Source: an uncultured Chromatiaceae bacterium
Lineage (GTDB): Bacteria > Pseudomonadota > Gammaproteobacteria > Chromatiales > Chromatiaceae
Direction of reading: 5' to 3'
NCBI GenBank assembly: GCA_964395315.1
Contig: CAYNBI010000003.1
Coordinates: forward strand, 11,782 to 75,781
Length of the DNA stretch: 64,000 nucleotides
The position numbers were made by a program, and so were the translations under genes. Below are positions 22,644 through 31,923 of the stretch, one piece after another (position 1 is the stretch's first letter; the number at the start of each line of letters is the position of its first letter). Below the pieces are notes generated by a model. The model was not told the DNA's origin. It worked only from the letters and a program-made list of their open reading frames with translations, and did no database searches.

Positions 22644-22946
22644 TCAGAAAACCCAGGCGATGAGAAGCGTGAGGACGAGAAAGAAACCGAAAAAGCTCCC
22701 GAGCATGAACTGGATCTCGCCAAACACCCCGTCCCCGGCCACGAGCGCGAACAGGACGAACAGCGCCACGGTCACGCCGAAGCCCCAGACGGCGGCCTCC
22801 CTCAGGCCCACGCCCGGGGCGAAGGCAACTGCCATCTCCTGCAACAGCGGACCTCCGGCAAGGAACAGGACGGCGAGAAGCACCGCCGCCACCGCCAGGA
22901 CGATGGCGAAAATCTTGAGATCGCCGCGGGCGCCCGACTCAGGCAT
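22644..22946 (-). CDS. Hypothetical 3-TM membrane protein (100 aa)
   Basis: The ATG at 22946 overlaps the bPH gene's stop by 8 nt. Hydrophobic segments are IFAIVLAVAAVLLAVLFLA, GFGVTVALFVLFALVAG and FFGFFLVLTLLIAWVF. Confidence 0.6.
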   Translation of the reverse strand: MPESGARGDLKIFAIVLAVAAVLLAVLFLAGGPLLQEMAVAFAPGVGLREAAVWGFGVTVALFVLFALVAGDGVFGEIQFMLGSFFGFFLVLTLLIAWVF

Positions 22947-23427
22947 CCGCCTTACCTTGCCCCTTGATGTGATCGCGGATCGCGTCGGGGTCGGGCAGCC
23001 CCCGCACCACGAGCTCCGGCGCGTCGCCGGAGGTGAAGATGGTGACGTCGCCCGCATTCATCATCCGCTGCATCAGGCTCTGGTTGATCCTGACCGTCCG
23101 CACCGAGCCCATGCTGATCTCCACGTACTGCTTGTTCAGCAGGCCATGGGTCCAGATCAGCTCGTCCTCCTTGATCTTCAGACTGTCGACCTTGGTGGAG
23201 ACCCACCAGGACAGAAGGCGGAAGAAGCCGATCACCGCCAGCACGATGCCGACGATGCCGAAGACACGGCCATCCACCGCCTCCACCGGGACACCCAGCA
23301 TGCCGCCGATGTGACCGCCCGCGATCGCGATCAGGATGCCGAGCAGGACCAAGACGACCATCACCACGGTTCCGACCGGATTCATGCGGACCATCGACGG
23401 GCTGGCTTCGTAGAGGACGTTCGACAT
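22939..23427 (-). CDS. Membrane protein with bacterial PH domain (bPH_2 / YdbS-like)
   Basis: Two N-terminal TM helices, then LKIKEDELIWTHGLLNKQYVEISMGSVRTVRINQSLMQRMMNAGDVTI, which is typical of the bPH_2 fold. Confidence 0.7.
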   Translation of the reverse strand: MSNVLYEASPSMVRMNPVGTVVMVVLVLLGILIAIAGGHIGGMLGVPVEAVDGRVFGIVGIVLAVIGFFRLLSWWVSTKVDSLKIKEDELIWTHGLLNKQYVEISMGSVRTVRINQSLMQRMMNAGDVTIFTSGDAPELVVRGLPDPDAIRDHIKGQGKADA

Positions 23428-23574
23428 CGGGCAACCCCAACAACAGCTGTTGTCAACTTTCTGAAATATATGGAAATTTCCCTGCCCTTGCGGAGGGAAA
23501 GACGATGGATGTTACCAATTGTGGCGCCCGCTTGAAACCCTCGTCCCGAGCGGTCCCGGTTATAATCCGCGGCC

Positions 23575-25182
23575 ATGAGCCCCTCTCAACTCTTGCGCGC
23601 CTCTAGCGGGCACATCCGTTTGCGCCTGTTCCGCGACCTCGTGCTTCTGGTCCTGTTCACCGTCGGGGTGCTGGCGACCGTCAGCTGGCTGCTGATCACG
23701 GAGCTCAAGGAGACGGTAGCCGAATCCAAGATCACGAGCTTCACCGCCCTGGTGCGGGACGAGGTGACCAACCTGCTGGTGCCCGTCGAACGTCAGCTGC
23801 TGATCGTCAGGGACGGGCTGCGCAACGCGGGCCTGACGCCCGCAGACCGGCGACCGCTGGACCTGCTCATGGCCCCGGTGATGGGGCACCTGGACCAGAT
23901 CTCCGGCACCGCCTACGCCGACAGTTCCGGTTCCGAGCACTTCCTGGTCCGCGATGGAGACGCCTGGCTGACGCGGACACGCGCCGCCGGTGACGACGGC
24001 GAGGCCACCTGGGCACAGTGGACCACCTCCGGGCATGACACCACCTCCCGCGAGGGCACGCTGGACTACGACCCGCGTCGGCGCCCCTGGTTTCAGGCCG
24101 CGAATCCCGCCGATCCGAGCCCGGTCTGGACCGGACCGTACGTCTTCCACTCCTTGAAGGTGCCTGGAATGACAGCCGCCGTCGCCTGGGAAGAAGGGAA
24201 CCGGAAGCACGTGCTGGCCATGGACGTGGGTCTGGCGCGCATTGTCGAGACGGTCGAGACGATGCCGCTGGATCACGGCGGATTAGGATTCCTGTTCAGG
24301 GGCGACGGCGGGATCTTTATCCCCGGGGGTGACGAGGAGGCGAAGGACCCGCACCAGGGCGATCGTTTTTTCTCCGCCGAGGAGAGCCTCGGCGGCCCCT
24401 TGCACTTCGATGCCGTGGCCGCCTGGCGAGCCGGGGGGCGCGCCGCCGATCGCCTGTTCCGCTTCACCAGCGGCGGCAGGGATTGGTGGGGCGGTTTCCT
24501 GCCGCTCTCGGACGCGGCCGACACGGCGTGGGTCGGGGTGGTCCTGCCCCATTCCGAGACCTTCGGCATCATCCAGAGCCGCTGGCACGTCCTGGCCTCG
24601 GCGGCGCTGACGATCGTCGCCGCCGGCGTCGGGCTGGTCCTGTTGCTCATGGGGAAGTACAGCCGTCAGCTGCGTGACCTGCCCAAGCTCTCCATCGACC
24701 GGCGCGACGCCGAGCGGGACCTCTACGACCTGATCGGCAGCGGGGAGGACGCCCACCTCGAATTCAAATCCACGATGCGCACCAATCTGCACACTGGAAA
24801 ACCCGGGAAGGAGATCGAGCTCGCCTGGCTGAAAGGGGTATGCGCGTTTCTCAACACCGAGGGCGGCATCCTGCTCATGGGGGTGGCGGACGACGGGACC
24901 GTCGTCGGCATGGAGGCAGACGCCTTCGACAACGAGGACAAGTGCCGGCTGCACTTCAAGAATCTGCTCAACCAGCATCTGGGAGCGGAATACGCGCGCT
25001 TCGTGCGCTTCGAGCTTTACCAGTTGGAGGGCAAGACCGTCGGCGCCGTCGAGTGCGAGCGCGCCCATTCGCCCGCCTTTCTGCGCCACAACAACAATGA
25101 GTCCTTCTTCATCCGCAGTGGGCCATCCAATATCGAACTCAGCCTGAGCAAAGCCCTTAAGTACATCCGCAGCCGCTTCTGA
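23575..25182 (+). CDS. Membrane sensor: TM, periplasmic Cache-like domain, TM, then cytoplasmic AlbA_2 (Schlafen-type) domain
   Basis: TM1 is at about aa 20-43. The Cache hallmark is YDPRRRPWFQAA...VWTGPYVFHSLKVPGMTAAV. TM2 is at about aa 338-360. The C-terminus, HLEFKST...AFLNTEGGILLMGVADDGTVVGM...FFIRSGPSNIELS, matches AlbA_2. Confidence 0.8.
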   Translation: MSPSQLLRASSGHIRLRLFRDLVLLVLFTVGVLATVSWLLITELKETVAESKITSFTALVRDEVTNLLVPVERQLLIVRDGLRNAGLTPADRRPLDLLMAPVMGHLDQISGTAYADSSGSEHFLVRDGDAWLTRTRAAGDDGEATWAQWTTSGHDTTSREGTLDYDPRRRPWFQAANPADPSPVWTGPYVFHSLKVPGMTAAVAWEEGNRKHVLAMDVGLARIVETVETMPLDHGGLGFLFRGDGGIFIPGGDEEAKDPHQGDRFFSAEESLGGPLHFDAVAAWRAGGRAADRLFRFTSGGRDWWGGFLPLSDAADTAWVGVVLPHSETFGIIQSRWHVLASAALTIVAAGVGLVLLLMGKYSRQLRDLPKLSIDRRDAERDLYDLIGSGEDAHLEFKSTMRTNLHTGKPGKEIELAWLKGVCAFLNTEGGILLMGVADDGTVVGMEADAFDNEDKCRLHFKNLLNQHLGAEYARFVRFELYQLEGKTVGAVECERAHSPAFLRHNNNESFFIRSGPSNIELSLSKALKYIRSRF

Positions 25183-25200: not shown

Positions 25201-26415
25201 TCAATCCGTCGCCCGGATCGCGGCGATGCGCGCCTCGCGGATGCGCTTCGGGATCTTCGCCGGATCATCCTCCCCGCTGGCGATCACGCCGGCATCCACC
25301 GCGCGAACGGCGGCGAGCAACCGGCGCAAGCGCTGCCCCTGCGGGTAATGGCGCTCCTCGTAACCCGCCCGGCCGCGAAAGTCCGCCTCGCAGGAGGTGA
25401 TCATCTGCTCGAAGCGCTCCGGCCGGCGTATCGCGTCCGCCCCCTCGAGCATCTCCAGAATCGTCGCCGGCCTGAGCTCGTCCACCTTGTGCGCCAGACC
25501 ATGGTAGCGGGCCACGATCCGCGCCAGTTCGCAGTAACGGCGCGGCGCCTTGAGGCGGGCGCAGACATCCTCGATCAGCTCGACGCTGCGCTGCTCGTGC
25601 CCCTTGTGGCTCGGCAGGATCTCGGTCGGGGTCGTGCCTTTTCCTAAATCGTGGGTCAGGGCCGCGAAACGCACCGCCGGGTCCGCAGAGAGACGGGCAG
25701 CCATGTCGACCACCATCATGGTGTGAACGCCGGTATCGATCTCCGGATGCCATTTCGCGGGCTGGGGTATGCCGTACAGGCGTGACACTTCCGGCAGCAG
25801 CCGCTCGAGCGCGCCGCATGCCCGCATGACTTCGAAAAAGCGCGAGGGCCGGGCCTCGCCGAGGGCCTTTGCGAGTTCCTGCCAAACCCGCTCCGGCACC
25901 AGGGCGTCGACCTCGCCGGCGTCCGTCATGCTGCGCATCAGCTCCATCGTTTCCTCGGCCACGGTGAAACCGAAATCCGCGTAGCGGGCCGCGAAGCGAG
26001 CGACCCGCAGGATGCGCACGGGATCCTCGGCGAAGGCGGCGGAGATGTGCCGCAACACCCTGTTTTGCAGGTCGGCACGCCCGCCGTAGTAATCGATCAG
26101 CTCGCCGTCCTCGTCCTCGGCCAGGGCGTTGATGGTGAGGTCACGCCGGCGCAGATCCTGCTCCAGCGTGACCGTGGGATCGGCGTGGACCACGAAGCCG
26201 TGATAACCGGGAGCCGTCTTGCGCTCGGTGCGCGCCAGTGCGTACTCCTCCTTCGTCTCCGGATGCAGGAAAACCGGGAAGTCCTTGCCTACCTGCTGAT
26301 AGCCCAGGGAAATCAGGTCCTGCGGCGTCGCGCCCACGACGACAAAGTCACGCTCCGCCACCGGGCGGCCGAGCAGGCGGTCCCTGACCGCGCCACCGAC
26401 GAGATAGGCCTTCAT
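25201..26415 (-). CDS. cca: Multifunctional CCA-adding tRNA nucleotidyltransferase (with HD domain)
   Basis: MKAYLVGGAVRD...DFVVVG...ARTERK, and an HD region HTMMV...LTHDLGK. ATG at 26415; the track start at 26418 is a TTG. Confidence 0.93.
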   Translation of the reverse strand: MKAYLVGGAVRDRLLGRPVAERDFVVVGATPQDLISLGYQQVGKDFPVFLHPETKEEYALARTERKTAPGYHGFVVHADPTVTLEQDLRRRDLTINALAEDEDGELIDYYGGRADLQNRVLRHISAAFAEDPVRILRVARFAARYADFGFTVAEETMELMRSMTDAGEVDALVPERVWQELAKALGEARPSRFFEVMRACGALERLLPEVSRLYGIPQPAKWHPEIDTGVHTMMVVDMAARLSADPAVRFAALTHDLGKGTTPTEILPSHKGHEQRSVELIEDVCARLKAPRRYCELARIVARYHGLAHKVDELRPATILEMLEGADAIRRPERFEQMITSCEADFRGRAGYEERHYPQGQRLRRLLAAVRAVDAGVIASGEDDPAKIPKRIREARIAAIRATD

Positions 26416-27071
26416 CAAGGAGAGTCCCGGCGCGGGCCGCCGCCCTCATCCTTGGTCTCGTTCCCGTTCGGGCCACCCCCGCCGAAGAATCGGGCGATGG
26501 CGCCGAAAACCCGCTTGATACCGCGCCAAAGCAAGGGCAGCAGCCAGATCAGGAGCAGCAGGAAGCCGGCCAGGATGACCAGGAAGACGACCGGGTGACT
26601 CACCGCGGTAAGGAGCCCCCCCACCACCGCGAAGTCCTCGACGATGGAGGCCGTCCAGTTGGTGAAGGGCTCGGGGGAGGTGTTGATCAGGGCCCGCGTC
26701 CCGGACTTGGCGGCATGCGAGGCAGCGGCCATGCCGCCGCCCATCAGCGCCGCCGCAAGCTCGGCGCCGGTGCCCACGTCGCCGACCGCACCTGCGGCGA
26801 GCATGGCACCCGCGGGGATGCGAATGAAGGTGTGCAGCGTGTCCCAGACGGTATCCACGCCTGGCACCTTGTCGGCGAAGAACTCGACCAAATACATGAC
26901 GCCTGCCGCGAGCATCACCAGCGGGTCGGAGAGGACCTCCAGCCCCGCCGGCAGATCCATGCGGCCGGTAGCGCCGAGGAATCCGAGCACCAGCACGGCG
27001 GCGTAGAGATTGATGCCGCTCGCCCAGCCGGCGCCGAGGGTGAGCGCGAGGGTCTGTGTCAGGTCTTCCAC
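26415..27071 (-). CDS. DUF4126-like integral membrane protein
   Basis: GAGWASGINLYAAVLVLG...YLVEFFADKVPGVDTVWD. The GTG start and the one-nt stop/start overlap with cca suggest one operon. Confidence 0.6.
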   Translation of the reverse strand: MEDLTQTLALTLGAGWASGINLYAAVLVLGFLGATGRMDLPAGLEVLSDPLVMLAAGVMYLVEFFADKVPGVDTVWDTLHTFIRIPAGAMLAAGAVGDVGTGAELAAALMGGGMAAASHAAKSGTRALINTSPEPFTNWTASIVEDFAVVGGLLTAVSHPVVFLVILAGFLLLLIWLLPLLWRGIKRVFGAIARFFGGGGPNGNETKDEGGGPRRDSP

Positions 27072-27258
27072 GGGTGCGGGCTCCGATCAGATGCGCGTAG
27101 CGGAATTATCCCGCAATTCGCCCGCGGCGACGAAAAAAGCGGCCGCCCGGGCGGACGATCCGCCGCGGTGCCGCCGGTCACGAACGCCCGCTTCTTTCCC
27201 CCCGCGTGTCAAGTCCGCGACAATAGGCGCCAATGCCTTAGTAACCTGGGACACAAGC

Positions 27259-27747
27259 ATGCGTTTGCTCGGATATCTGTTTCTCATCGGACTCGTCGCT
27301 TTTGGCGCCTGGCCCTACTACCACCTGTTCCGCCTCGACGATGCCCTCGGCAGGAACGACATGACCGCGCTGGCGGAGTTGGTGGACGTGCAGGCGATAC
27401 GCGGCAACTATAAATCGCGGATCGAGAAAGGCCTCGGGCTGGGGGCGCTGCCACGACCGGAGGATCCCGCGAGTGCCCTGACCTGGCTGCAGCAGAACCT
27501 ACAACGGCTCGGGGATTCGGCACTCGAGCAGACGATCACCCTCGAATGGGCGCGGGACACCCTGAAGGCATCCGCCGCTCAGGCCACTGACAAGCAGCCG
27601 CCGTACTTCCTCGCAGGCGTCGATTTCGCCTTTTTCGAGTCCTTCGGCAGCTTCATCATCCGCTTAGGGGAACTCGGGCTCAACGCGACTCACGTGCGCA
27701 TGCGCCTGGAAGGCACCCGCTGGCGGGTGACGGACATCATTCGCTGA
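27259..27747 (+). CDS. DUF2939-like protein (N-terminal TM anchor)
   Basis: MRLLGYLFLIGLVAFGAWPYYHLFRLDDAL. ATG at 27259; the track extension to 27010 is rejected. Confidence 0.55.
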   Translation: MRLLGYLFLIGLVAFGAWPYYHLFRLDDALGRNDMTALAELVDVQAIRGNYKSRIEKGLGLGALPRPEDPASALTWLQQNLQRLGDSALEQTITLEWARDTLKASAAQATDKQPPYFLAGVDFAFFESFGSFIIRLGELGLNATHVRMRLEGTRWRVTDIIR

Positions 27748-27788: not shown

Positions 27789-28520
27789 TCAGGCGGCGAT
27801 GGACAGGGTCTCCACCGTGCCGCGGTTCTTCTCGCGGAGCAGGATCTTGAAGGTATCGAGGGGATAGCCCATCTCGCCGATCAGGCGCTTGATGATGCCG
27901 AGCAAGACCTCCGGGTCCACGTCCGCCTCGGCGAAAATGGCATCGGCGATGGGCAGGGGGTCGTCCAGGCGGTCCGGTACCCGGGCGAAGAGCGGCTTGC
28001 CCCGGTAGCGAAAATCGCCCGGCTCATCCGCCAGGCGTGAGATCCGCTCCGGATCGCGGCCGTAGAGCTCCTGCAGCAGGGCCTCGTAAAACAGGGGCCA
28101 GGCCGAGGCGCTGGTGAAGGTCTGACCGCCGAGCATGAAACCGAACGGGGCCTTCTTGTCGAGATCTCCCGCTAGCGCCGACGCCTGAATGCCGGAGTGC
28201 GCACCGGCATCGGAAGGTGCCGGGCGCTCCTCCGGCGCATCGGCCAAGGGCGCCTCGGGCGGAACCTCGGCCCCGGTTCCCGGCCCCGAAACCGGATATT
28301 CCGCCAGCAGGGCAAGCATCTCCGTCATGGCCTGATCGAGCGCGCTGCGGCGCTCGTTGTAACGCTGCTTGAAGCGCACGCCCGCCTCCAGCGCGGCGGC
28401 ATCTTCATGGTCGATGTCCTGCCAAATGGCCCTGGACAGGTTCTCCAGCTGGGCGCGCATCTGCGCCATCCTTTCCTTGACGGTCTCCAAGGTGTCACCG
28501 ATTCGCACTTGTTCGCCCAT
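27789..28520 (-). CDS. Hypothetical protein (243 aa): N-terminal coiled coil, Pro/Ala linker, C-terminal globular domain
   Basis: ATG at 28520 is preceded by gaAGAGGtatctgca. Codon bias matches neighbouring genes. I recognise no motif. Confidence 0.6.
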   Translation of the reverse strand: MGEQVRIGDTLETVKERMAQMRAQLENLSRAIWQDIDHEDAAALEAGVRFKQRYNERRSALDQAMTEMLALLAEYPVSGPGTGAEVPPEAPLADAPEERPAPSDAGAHSGIQASALAGDLDKKAPFGFMLGGQTFTSASAWPLFYEALLQELYGRDPERISRLADEPGDFRYRGKPLFARVPDRLDDPLPIADAIFAEADVDPEVLLGIIKRLIGEMGYPLDTFKILLREKNRGTVETLSIAA

Positions 28521-28587
28521 TGCAGATACCTCTTCGCTCGGCGTCCAGATCCGCTCCCATGACCCTTCCCCGCCGCTTCTCATTGGG

Positions 28588-29002: not shown

Positions 29003-29368
29003 TCAGTCCCGGACCAGCTTTGCATGGTCCAGCAACAACAGCCGGCAGCTCGCGCAGTGCCAGGCCATGTTCACCGCGGGCCGCAGGGACATGCTGATGG
29101 TGTTGTCCAGGGTGGCACCCAGGTGGGAGAAGGTTCCGGGCTTCGCCCGCGATCGCGAGGACCAGATCGCCCCCTTTCCCAGCAGTGCCCAGCCCTGCTC
29201 CATGGGCGTCCGGCATGCGGGACAGCGGTAGTCGCGGCCGGCCCACAACCGGCCATCGTCCGCCACGCTCCGGTTCTTGCGCTGGAGGTGCCGCACCAGC
29301 CACAAGAATGCCAGCAGCCCCGCGATCGCCGTCGCGGCGCCGGCGAAGAGAAAAACGTCGAACGTCAT
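29003..29368 (-). CDS. Hypothetical membrane-anchored zinc-ribbon protein (121 aa)
   Basis: AAGGAacaacgccATG provides an SD. TM helix FLFAGAATAIAGLLAFLWLV. CPAC...CASC could bind metal with four Cys. Confidence 0.55.
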   Translation of the reverse strand: MTFDVFLFAGAATAIAGLLAFLWLVRHLQRKNRSVADDGRLWAGRDYRCPACRTPMEQGWALLGKGAIWSSRSRAKPGTFSHLGATLDNTISMSLRPAVNMAWHCASCRLLLLDHAKLVRD

Positions 29369-29484
29369 GGCGTTGTTCCTTGCATCGAAAACGGAGAACC
29401 TACACGAAGTAATCATGTTTGGGCCCTGAGATCGATGGTTGCTTGAATGCACCCACATCAAATCTGGCAAGGCGGTAACGGGAC

Positions 29485-31923
29485 ATGATCCAGAACTTCA
29501 CCCAGCTCAGCACCAAGAAGGTGCTGCAGACCCTGGAGATGGCGGTCGCCGAGCTTGCGGGCATGCGCCAGAACCAGCTCACGCCGGATTTCATCCTGCT
29601 TGCCCTGCTCTCGCAGCCCGACGCCGAGCCGATGCGGATCCTGGAGAACCTGCTCTCTCATCCCGACGAGGCGGCGGTGCGCATCAAGGCACACATCCGC
29701 CAGCACTACCAGCACGCGACCCCGGTCCAGGCGACCCAGGTCGTCGCGACCCAGGAGGTCGCCGAGGTGTTCCGGATCGCGTACGAGGAGGCCAAACAGC
29801 TCGGCGACAGCTACATCTCCACCGGCACCCTGTTCATCGCCCTCTTCGACCCCAAGACCGGCCACACGGCTGAGCTCCTGCGCGATGAGGGCATCAATCG
29901 AGAGCAGGCGCGCAAGGCCCTGCACGAGCTGCGCGGGGGTCGGACCGTCGCCACCGAGGATGCAGAGACCGAGCCGGACGTGCTCGAGCGCTATACCCGC
30001 GACCTGACGGAGATGGCCCGGCGCGGGGAGCTGGACCCGGTGATCGGACGCGAGGAGGAGATCGCCCAAGTCATCCAGACCCTGTCCCGGCGCAAGAAGA
30101 ACAACCCCGCCCTGATCGGCGAGGCGGGCGTCGGCAAGACCGTTATCGTCGAGGGACTGGCGCAGCGCATCGCCGACGCCGACGTGCCCGACACCCTGCT
30201 CAACAAGCGCCTGCTCTCGCTGGACATGGGCGAGATCGTGGCCGGGGCCAAGATGCGCGGCGAATTCGAGGAGCGGTTGAAATCGGTGCGCGACGAGGTG
30301 ATCAAGGCCAAGGGCCGGGTCATCCTCTTCATCGACGAGCTGCACACCGTGGTGGGCGCCGGCGCCGGTGCCGGCGGCATGGACGCACCGAGCCTGCTCA
30401 AGACGGCGTTGGCCCAGGGCACGCTGCAGGTCATCGGCGCCGACACCCTGGACGAGTACCACCGATTCGTGGAGTCCGACAAGGCCCTGGAGCGCCGATT
30501 CCACCCCATCCTGGTGCGCGAGCCGTCGGTCGAGGACACCATCAGGATCCTCATGGGTGTCGCCCCGCGTTACGAGCGTCATCACCAGATCCAGTACGCG
30601 CGAGACGCCCTGGAGGCGGCCGCACAGCTCTCGGAGCGTTACATCAGCGATCGCCGGCTCCCGGACAAGGCCGTGGACCTCGTCGACGAGGCCGGCTCCC
30701 ACAAGCACCTGCGACTGATCTCGATTCCGCGCGAGGTCAAGGAGCTCGAACGCGAGCGCCAGCGCCTGTTGCGCGAGAAGACGGCGGCCTTCAACGGGCA
30801 GGCCTTCGAGCAGGCCGCCCGCCTGCAGATGGAGATCCTGAAGCTCGAGGAGCGTCTGGGCGCAGCGCGTGCGGATTGGGAGTCCGCCCGCGGTAAGGAG
30901 GATAAGCTCGTGCACCCGGAGGACATCGCCCAGGTCGTCTCGCACTGGACCGGCATACCGGTGGCCCGCATGGTCGAGACCGAGGCGGACAAGCTCGCCC
31001 GCATGGAGGAGAACCTGCATAAGCGGATCGTCGGGCAGGAGGATGCGGTGCGCGCCGTCTCGGACGCAATTCGACGCAACCGGGCCGGCATTACCTCCGC
31101 ACGGCGGCCCATCGGCTCCTTCCTCTTCCTCGGCCCCACCGGTGTAGGGAAGACCGAGCTCGCCCGCGCCCTGGCTGCCTTCCTGCTCGACAACGAGTCG
31201 CGCATCATCCGCCTGGACATGTCTGAATACATGGAGCGCCACGAGGTATCGAAGATGATCGGCGCGCCCCCCGGTTACATCGGCTACGGCGAGGGCGGCC
31301 AGCTCACCGAACGGGTGCGGCGCAATCCCTACACGGTGGTGTTGCTCGACGAGATGGAGAAGGCCCACCCGGACGTCTTCAACATGCTGTTGCAGATCCT
31401 GGAGGACGGCCGCCTCACCGATGCCCAAGGGCGGACGGTCTCCTTTCGCAACACCATCCTGGTCGGCACCTCCAACCTGGGCACTGAGGCTCTCTCTCCG
31501 GAGAAGCGGCCGATCGGATTCATTCAGTCGGCAATGCCCAGCTACGCGGAGGCGAGGGACCTCGTCCTGCACGAGGTCAAGAAGTTCTTCAAGCCCGAGT
31601 TCCTCAACCGGCTCGATGACGTCATTGTCTTCCACTACCTCGAGCCCGCGCACGTTCGCGCGATCGCGGTGATGTTCGTCGATGCGCTGGTGCGGCGCCT
31701 CGCGCGCCGTGAAATCGAGGTGACCATCGATGACGCGGTGCTCGACAAGCTGGCCGCGGACGGTTTCGATCCGGTCTACGGGGCGCGCCCCTTGCGCCGG
31801 GAGGTCGAGCGCCAGCTGGAGAATCCGTTGGCGATGAAGATCGTGGCCGGGGCGTGCCAGGAGGGCAGCCGGGTCCTGGTGCGGGTTGCGGACGGGGAAA
31901 TCGCTTTCGAGATCAGGAAATAG
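29485..31923 (+). CDS. ClpC-type AAA+ unfoldase (Clp_N repeats, two AAA modules, short UVR-like middle motif, ClpP-docking IGF loop)
   Basis: GEAGVGKT and GPTGVGKT are the Walker A motifs, and LFIDELH and VLLDEMEKA the Walker B motifs. [18 protein letters not shown] is the UVR-like motif, and KRPIGF is the docking loop. The protein is 812 aa. Confidence 0.88.

Follow-up and report, generated by a model that had tools for sequence, protein, structure and literature searches.

The stretch of DNA analysed here (the window; 64,000 nucleotides (nt) of contig CAYNBI010000003.1 from an uncultured Chromatiaceae bacterium) carries on its forward strand an open reading frame (ORF) of 535 amino acids (aa), which is predicted to encode a membrane protein with a periplasmic dCache-type sensor placed between two transmembrane (TM) helices and a cytoplasmic Schlafen/AlbA_2 domain (Table 1). 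The start of this ORF is the first ATG downstream of an in-frame stop codon. Kyte-Doolittle analysis with 19-residue windows detected just two strong TM segments, with peaks of 2.6 (aa 23-41) and 2.47 (aa 339-357), in agreement with the two helices proposed in an original prediction made from the sequence alone. The charges around them agreed as well, because the positively charged N-terminus is followed, on the other side of the periplasmic region, by six K/R in the 20 aa after TM2; this pattern fits a topology with both termini in the cytoplasm and about 290 aa in the periplasm. After TM2 there are only 175 aa, which are filled by the AlbA_2 domain. No match at E<=1 to kinase, methyl-accepting chemotaxis protein (MCP), GGDEF/EAL, Pkinase, HAMP, ATPase or helix-turn-helix (HTH) models was found in the 535-aa protein with Pfam and NCBIfam, and thus the previous statement that no further output module follows was reproduced. 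The NCBIfam and PADLOC models gave nothing meaningful with this protein, neither a curated name nor a defence model. We consider the gene to be real, because its syntenic relatives in metagenome-assembled genomes (MAGs) were 90-94% identical and hundreds of full-length homologues were found.

Table 1. Features of the Schlafen gene and its neighbours, numbered from the first nucleotide of the window. CDS, coding sequence; AF2, AlphaFold2; rSLFN13, rat SLFN13; pSlfn, prokaryotic Schlafen.
Feature	Position	Strand	Evidence or remark
CDS of the putative TM-dCache-TM-Schlafen protein, 535 aa	23575..25182, stop codon included	+	ORF reading, homologues
-10 box TATAAT, ending 8 nt before the ATG	23561..23566	+	Sequence, cross-locus conservation
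Short N-terminus, predicted cytoplasmic, aa 1-20 (4 K/R, 0 D/E)	23575..23634	+	Positive-inside rule
TM helix 1, aa ~21-43, continuous with the stalk helix in the periplasm (helix 13-85 of the model)	23635..23703	+	Hydropathy, AF2
Predicted periplasmic dCache-type sensor, aa 44-337 (distal PDC ~aa 92-228, proximal PDC ~237-325)	23704..24585	+	AF2, Foldseek, phmmer
Putative amino-acid-binding motif region (Y165, R170, W172, Y189, D217)	24067..24225	+	PctA/PctB alignment
TM helix 2, aa ~338-360	24586..24654	+	Hydropathy, AF2, layout of representatives
Cytoplasmic linker, aa 361-385, conserved YSRQLRDLPKL, without HAMP or coiled-coil	24655..24729	+	Pfam, alignment, AF2
Cytoplasmic Schlafen/AlbA_2 domain, aa 386-535	24730..25179	+	Pfam, Foldseek, PDB matches
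Predicted catalytic motif E391-D-A-H-L-E396-F-K398 (Ex4ExK)	24745..24768	+	rSLFN13 alignment, pSlfn motif
D439 codon (in GVADDG), aligned with catalytic D248 of rSLFN13	24889..24891	+	PDB alignment
bPH_2 (bacterial PH) protein, 162 aa	22939-23427	-	Pfam
CCA-adding enzyme gene cca (PolyA_pol head, RNA-binding and HD)	25201-26418	-	Convergent, 18-nt gap
DUF2939 protein gene	27010-27747	+	Weak PADLOC match to PDC-S55

The cytoplasmic domain was recognised by Pfam as SLFN_AlbA_2 (PF04326) over aa 391-522, with an E value of 6.6e-21 and 75.5 bits where the cut-off is 25.3, the match spanning positions 1-117 of the 118 of the profile. When the last 170 aa were modelled alone (predicted local distance difference test, pLDDT, of 77.6) and compared using Foldseek, ranks 1-20 were all AlbA_2/SLFN structures (2kyy, 3lmm, SLFN14, 13, 11 and 5); their E values went from 1.2e-5 to 6.8e-3, rising above 0.2 beyond them, and their TM-scores were modest (0.3-0.5). 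The AlbA_2 assignment of the original prediction was borne out by both results, with the exception of the place where the domain was said to begin, some 20 aa past TM2, since the LEFK motif is found about 30 aa after this helix. The first helix of the cytoplasmic domain begins at aa 379.

Sequence matches of the C-terminal domain in the PDB were to SLFN12, SLFN13 and SLFN5. The segment EDAHLEFK (aa 391-398) aligned with ESASIEFK of rSLFN13 and with ESTHVEIK of SLFN12, whereas GVADDG aligned with GVDDES of SLFN13. After allowing for the 13-residue tag in entry 5yd0, E391, E396 and D439 corresponded to E205, E210 and D248 of rSLFN13, the residues that are essential in the cleavage of tRNA and rRNA (Yang et al., PMC5862951). 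The pattern Ex4(E/D)xK is also the catalytic signature of pSlfn proteins (PMC13056530); domains bearing it act as tRNases (PMC13056530, PMC13462974), and the E17-D22-K24/Mg2+ centre of one of them, CbCash, was seen on tRNA by cryo-electron microscopy (PMC13462974). E391, E396, K398 and D439 were invariant in the 42 close homologues and in the 117 distant full-length homologues compared, and R402, N427, G430, G431, G436, G445, H460, R514 and G516 were also present in 117/117. As judged from these alignments, the cytoplasmic domain is a single-lobe Schlafen nuclease domain whose active site is intact. The presence of Ex4ExK and of the Asp, both invariant in the relatives, strengthened the earlier idea of a ligand-gated, membrane-tethered protein that binds or cleaves nucleic acids, and cleavage is clearly favoured over binding only.

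The periplasmic part matched the ligand-binding domains of PctB (E=3.4e-9) and PctA (E=1.9e-6), two amino-acid chemoreceptors of Pseudomonas, when compared with the PDB by phmmer. In an AF2 model of the window protein, built on 42 homologues and with a mean pLDDT of 83.2, a long first helix comprising TM1 and the stalk was followed by two alpha/beta PDC modules and by the TM2 helix (aa 337-367), the loop of aa 252-273 being the single low-confidence stretch. The top 50 Foldseek matches in the PDB were all dCache ligand-binding domains, with a best E value of 1.1e-11 and target-normalised TM-scores of up to 0.76. Because the PctB and PctA matches, the AF2 layout and the Foldseek hits coincided, the periplasmic domain of the model is assigned as a double-PDC dCache on its fold and its sequence matches in the PDB, not on Pfam alone. 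An insertion of 40-50 aa, of low complexity and rich in Ser, Pro, Gly, Asn and Ala, was observed in the membrane-proximal PDC module (alignment columns ~370-440) of one subclade (P0098, P0102, P0104, P0111 and P0113; 578-586 aa), at the loop that has low confidence in the model of the window protein.

In the dCache_1 amino-acid motif of PctA, Y121, R126 and W128 touch the carboxylate of the ligand whereas Y144 and D173 touch its amino group (PMC8915833); R126A lowers binding and D173A abolishes it (PMC8915833, Gumerov et al. 2022). The HMMER alignments placed Y165, R170, W172, Y189 and D217 of the window protein in register with these five residues (YDPRRRPWF...PY...AMD in the window protein, facing YDPRSRPWY...PY...GGD in the PctA and PctB alignments), with a distance from W to Y of 17 residues, compared with 16 in PctA. 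All five residues of the dCache_1AA motif as described by Gumerov et al. (2022) were therefore found, with the short spacing between its two parts. R170, W172, Y189 and D217 were unchanged in all 42 Chromatiaceae-type homologues, and among the 117 distant representatives they were kept in 76 (R), 107 (W), 87 (Y) and 82 (D), that is, in 65-91%. Most members of the family thus probably resemble amino-acid sensors, the ligand having shifted in a minority, and for the window protein itself we see about an even chance that the ligand is an amino acid. Thiocystis violacea apparently has two paralogues of the receptor (P0040 and P0062), which hints at ligand specificity diversifying within one genome.

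The architecture was common. A word-indexed search yielded 677 relatives, and the best 120 of them were all of about 535 aa, with 46-90% identity (mostly 50% or more) and mainly full-length coverage; most came from purple sulfur bacteria (Marichromatium, Thiocapsa, Thiocystis, Thioflavicoccus, Thiorhodococcus, Thiohalocapsa, Rhabdochromatium and Thiorhodovibrio). In an exhaustive HMMER scan of 1.84 billion representatives of 50% identity clusters, 436 clusters reached E<=1e-30. Of these, the best 150 were nearly all 500-560 aa long and aligned end to end, with identities down to 25-30%, and nearly all had a stereotyped layout with TM1 near aa 15 and TM2 near aa 330; ExxxxE(F/L/Y)K started about 35-65 aa (typically ~50) past the start of TM2. 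Named members outside the Gammaproteobacteria belonged to Desulfocapsa/Thermodesulfobacteriota, to Pontiella/Pontiellaceae and to an unclassified 'bacterium SCSIO 12741'. When the window protein was aligned with 117 full-length representatives, their mean identity to it was 53% in the Schlafen domain and 23% in the periplasmic domain. Two representatives, P0257 (477 aa) and P0184 (385 aa), were the only cases of a different partner on the TM-Schlafen module; they kept TM2, linker and Schlafen domain at about 53% identity, the dCache being replaced by an AAA_22 ATPase and a GNAT acetyltransferase, respectively, and could be either true alternative architectures or chimeric gene calls.

The members are named in the databases as hypothetical protein, 'RNA-binding domain-containing', 'putative DNA binding domain-containing', 'AlbA family DNA-binding', 'Schlafen, AlbA_2', 'ATP-binding protein', 'ATPase AAA', 'AAA-4 family' and, once, 'putative transcriptional regulator with HTH domain'; none of these names corresponds to a characterised function. 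Full-text literature searches joining AlbA_2 or Schlafen with Cache retrieved no relevant paper and none characterising the architecture. A Cache or transmembrane fusion was likewise absent from the main texts of two 2026 surveys of prokaryotic Schlafens (PMC13056530, PMC13462974), and the architecture may be listed without comment in their supplementary tables. The words 'membrane' and 'periplasm' do not occur in the main text of Perez Taboada et al. (PMC13056530), and 'membrane' occurs twice in that of the Cash paper (PMC13462974), once in the title of a reference on Cam1. The architecture is frequent, but no paper that characterises it was found in these searches.

The domain assignments and the conservation of the family led us to propose, with a probability of about 0.6, that the window protein is a one-component transmembrane receptor in which a periplasmic ligand would gate a Schlafen RNase. 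The receptors of the dCache class are dimers, and the ligand signal is relayed in them by displacement of TM2. The window protein would likewise form a homodimer or a higher oligomer; ligand bound in the distal PDC module would shift the TM2 helices, and this shift would alter the packing of the adjacent Schlafen domains under the membrane, turning the RNase on or off. In the Schlafen nucleases a groove that binds RNA takes two lobes or two subunits. Since each chain has one lobe, the Schlafen lobes would have to pair between subunits, and the relative positions of the TM2 helices would decide whether neighbouring lobes make a competent RNA-binding groove. Such a switch, based on the geometry of TM2, would be the simplest model because there is one lobe, about 25 aa from the membrane, and neither HAMP nor coiled-coil in between. 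Oligomerisation or dimerisation activates both prokaryotic and human Schlafens (PMC13462974): CbCash is active only once filaments driven by cyclic tetra-adenylate (cA4) align neighbouring Schlafen domains, RorSlfn5 oligomerises upon binding of its trigger, and the core of mammalian SLFN is a pseudo-dimer of two AlbA_2-like lobes which dimerises again around one tRNA (all in PMC13462974). SLFN13, CbCash and RorSlfn5, the Schlafen nucleases that have been assayed, cut tRNA or rRNA (PMC5862951, PMC13056530, PMC13462974), and by analogy the substrate here is most likely tRNA, or possibly rRNA. Cutting of tRNA would alter translation quickly, either reversibly or to the point of growth arrest. Because the gene is stand-alone in a housekeeping context with local synteny, its physiological role could be to couple the external status of amino acids or nutrients to the tRNA pool, and not classical phage defence; we see the odds of a non-immune role as roughly balanced.

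Several observations weigh against this proposal. Certain eukaryotic Schlafens retain the acidic residues and yet have weak or absent tRNase activity, therefore an intact motif is no proof of activity. The oligomeric switch was drawn from analogy with other receptors and nucleases. The periplasmic domain did not reach the gathering score of Pfam dCache_1 (PF02743), scoring 18.2 bits where 45 are required (E=0.0019), and MCP-like_PDC_1 was also below threshold (E=0.021); the Cache claim of the original prediction thus held by fold and by the PctA/PctB matches, but not by this Pfam model. PF02743 is a precomputed match in many homologues, and the two looked up in detail were flagged as weak. Y165 was variable within the Chromatiaceae in the 42-sequence alignment, and R170 or D217 was absent in about one third of the distant members, therefore the ligand would not be uniform throughout the family. 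Finally, the prokaryotic Schlafens that have been characterised to date all serve in defence against phages (PMC13056530, PMC13462974), which a priori favours an immune function.

Comparison with known systems helped to place the protein. The pSlfn nucleases described in 2025-26 are phage-defence effectors with varied sensors (PMC13056530, PMC13462974). RorSlfn5 (Slfn plus an Ig-like sensor) and CbCash (Slfn plus the Csx15 cA4 sensor) likewise have a single-lobe SLFN_AlbA_2 domain with Ex4(E/D)xK, and they share with the window protein the union of sensor and nuclease in one polypeptide, a conserved nuclease with a variable sensor and, as the expected logic, oligomerisation driven by the sensor. 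However, these examples are soluble and cytoplasmic with an N-terminal nuclease, whereas the nuclease of the window protein is C-terminal and would be tethered to the membrane by the two TM helices; their triggers are phage proteins inside the cell or cyclic oligoadenylate and not, as predicted here, extracytoplasmic ligands bound by an amino-acid-type dCache; and their genes are mostly in defence islands whereas the window gene is among housekeeping genes. The dCache_1AA receptors (PctA/PctB/PctC, Mlp24, Tlp3 and CtaA) show the same layout of TM, double PDC and TM together with the full amino-acid motif, but their outputs are MCP, histidine kinase, GGDEF/EAL, Ser/Thr kinase or phosphatase, or cyclase, in place of a Schlafen domain without HAMP. 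No RNase or Schlafen output is among those listed for dCache_1AA receptors by Gumerov et al. 2022 (PMC8915833).

The N-terminal cores of mammalian SLFN11/12/13/14, which are metal-dependent tRNA/rRNA endonucleases, belong to the same fold family as the cytoplasmic domain and have the same catalytic acidic residues; they are soluble and have two lobes in one chain followed by a linker and a helicase, in contrast to the single, membrane-anchored and receptor-coupled lobe of the window protein. The closest solved bacterial structures, 3lmm and 2kyy, are from AlbA_2-HATPase_c_4-HTH proteins (the 'HisKinase-HTH' pSlfn), which belong to the same Pfam family but are cytoplasmic, carry a GHKL-type ATPase and an HTH and are often encoded beside restriction-modification, BREX or CRISPR genes, none of which applies to the window protein or its gene. 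In Ire1 and RNase L a sensor on one side controls an RNase by oligomerisation, and the RNA pool is changed without a phosphorelay to a transcription factor. The resemblance of the window protein to them would be a functional analogy only, not homology, because the kinase or pseudokinase and the KEN RNase were not found in it by Pfam.

The strongest alternative is that the protein is an anti-phage sensor-effector of abortive infection, in which the dCache would detect a cue of attack on the envelope or periplasm (a phage protein, cell-wall fragments or a metabolite linked to infection) and the Schlafen tRNase would halt translation. All the experimentally studied pSlfn proteins are defence effectors with variable sensors, and the present family shows this pattern too, with 53% identity in the nuclease domain and 23% in the sensor. 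Nevertheless, when we compared seven distinct Pfam-annotated neighbourhoods (the window and six others, from Marichromatium, other Gammaproteobacteria and distant members), a small sample and not a statistical survey, no known defence gene was found in any of them, and the neighbours in the other members were housekeeping or signalling genes. PADLOC matched just two of the neighbours in the window: a Clp ATPase, by AAA+ similarity of a generic kind, and, weakly, the DUF2939 protein (candidate model PDC-S55, E=3.2e-6). The latter match probably reflects a shared DUF and is not evidence of a defence system; the window gene is thus not located in a recognisable defence island. The housekeeping synteny (pqiAB, cca and DUF4126) within a Chromatiaceae clade, the native base composition and the nutrient-type amino-acid motif in the sensor also argue against an anti-phage function. 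Of the pSlfn genes, 30.4% lie outside defence neighbourhoods, and non-immune functions were proposed as possible for them (Perez Taboada et al., PMC13056530); the window gene belongs with this approximately 30%. On balance we regard the anti-phage explanation as unlikely.

A second alternative, that the protein is a non-catalytic, membrane-tethered nucleic-acid binder in the manner of ToxR/CadC, whose AlbA_2 domain would control transcription or sequester RNA in response to a periplasmic ligand, seems to us quite improbable. Relatives are annotated as 'putative DNA binding domain-containing', 'RNA-binding domain-containing' or 'transcriptional regulator', 2kyy and 3lmm, the bacterial structures nearest to the domain, belong to AlbA_2-ATPase-HTH proteins without an assigned activity, and several mammalian SLFNs bind nucleic acids while their nuclease activity is not clear (PMC13462974). 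On the other hand, Pfam found no HTH or other DNA-reading module, no conserved target operon adjoined the gene in the neighbourhoods compared, and the conservation of the four catalytic residues and of many around them in 117/117 relatives across phyla is the signature of an enzyme. A third alternative, in which the fusion arose from faulty annotation or assembly or is a remnant in decay, with halves that do not cooperate, could cite the odd N-terminal partners of P0257 and P0184 as possible chimeric calls, but it is effectively refuted by the end-to-end architecture of about 535 aa in hundreds of independent genomes and metagenomes, complete genomes included, by the lack of frameshifts and by the conservation of the start position and of the upstream -10 box.

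Cache domains are the commonest extracellular sensors in prokaryotes and, to our knowledge, the outputs documented for them are without exception kinases, chemoreceptor arrays and cyclic-nucleotide and phosphatase modules. If the proposed ligand-gated receptor RNase is correct, direct RNA cleavage would join these outputs, and the widespread Cache-Schlafen family suggests a link from an external chemical signal straight to the cleavage of RNA, probably tRNA. More tentatively, and with less confidence than in the receptor itself, the family could represent an unrecognised class of bacterial signalling, a transmembrane receptor RNase in which amino-acid sensing by dCache_1AA would gate a Schlafen tRNase without phosphorelay or second messenger. 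If true, this would be a prokaryotic counterpart of the logic of Ire1/RNase L, in which extracellular amino acids set the translation capacity; it would be the first non-immune housekeeping role of a prokaryotic Schlafen, and it would offer a candidate for the enzyme behind the starvation-induced degradation of tRNA in bacteria, with a possible bearing on how the tRNA pool is adjusted to nutrient status. The hundreds of clusters over several phyla, the invariant active site, the amino-acid-type sensor and the housekeeping context make this family a testable candidate for non-immune Schlafen function, and the predicted ligand class and catalytic residues are ready handles for mutational and biochemical work.

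The Schlafen gene is a stand-alone, natively composed chromosomal gene, which is syntenic in one Chromatiaceae clade. Recent horizontal acquisition was rejected because its GC content (0.662) and GC at third codon positions (GC3; 0.864) matched those of the flanking genes. It is divergent from the bPH_2 membrane protein gene and from a 137-aa membrane ORF without Pfam match. These two form a pair at 22644-23427 on the reverse strand, with an overlap of about 119 nt as listed, the actual start of the 137-aa ORF being probably further downstream; the pair adjoined the Schlafen gene in one clade only. Farther neighbours in the window were pqiAB, terC, an SBP_bac_3 protein gene, DUF4126, DUF2939 and a Clp ATPase gene. 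The nearest MAGs, with 90-94% identity, kept this arrangement, as did a wider Chromatiaceae clade. A 264-aa ORF without Pfam or PADLOC match (27789-28583) and a DUF6487 protein gene (29003-29470), both on the reverse strand and conserved in the loci of the nearest MAGs, were placed between the DUF2939 gene and the ClpA/B-type ATPase gene (29485-31923).

In Marichromatium the neighbours were genes of a GGDEF-EAL protein, an LTXXQ protein and a UvrA-like protein, and in other gammaproteobacterial MAGs those of Usp and an NtrC-type two-component pair. Distant members were found next to PhoD, an outer-membrane barrel and MarC; to Omp85, patatin and a two-component pair; or to purF, cvpA, folC and gpmI. 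No operon partner, antitoxin or immunity gene was conserved across clades in the seven neighbourhoods. A search for tRNA or structured RNA genes near the Schlafen gene found none. The adjacency of cca, which places the gene of a tRNA-repair enzyme next to that of a putative tRNase, was seen in 11 loci, Rhabdochromatium included. It is suggestive, yet it looks like lineage synteny, and we discarded a functional link with cca as a defining feature of the family because the 11 loci belong to one lineage and the adjacency was lost in Marichromatium, in the other gammaproteobacterial MAGs and in all the distant members.

The region immediately upstream of the Schlafen gene was analysed for transcription signals. 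The TATAAT hexamer, the lack of a Shine-Dalgarno sequence upstream of the window ATG and the nearest -35-like motif, a TTGAAA at 23532-23537 which leaves a spacer of 23 nt, were all reproduced as previously described. A promoter and terminator scan found no canonical promoter on the forward strand, because there was no -35 region at 16-18 nt, and no terminator; the evidence for the -10 box therefore rests on its conservation across loci. Of 22 homologous loci, 17 had TATAAT or TATACT at 6-8 nt from the ATG on its upstream side, among them those of Marichromatium gracile and M. purpuratum, the L004-type clade and L012-L014, while the remaining upstream DNA could not be aligned between clades; L016 agreed as well after its start was shifted 24 nt upstream. 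Besides the window, the loci noted with such a hexamer were L004-L009, L012-L016, L018, L021 and L022. From the base frequencies, at 65% GC, we estimated a chance of about 2% for TAnnnT to occur in a positional window of 3-4 nt. Since the position of the hexamer was kept where the upstream DNA was otherwise unalignable, the comparison backs the earlier suggestion of a leaderless messenger and suggests that a leaderless or near-leaderless mRNA is conserved for this gene in the Chromatiaceae.

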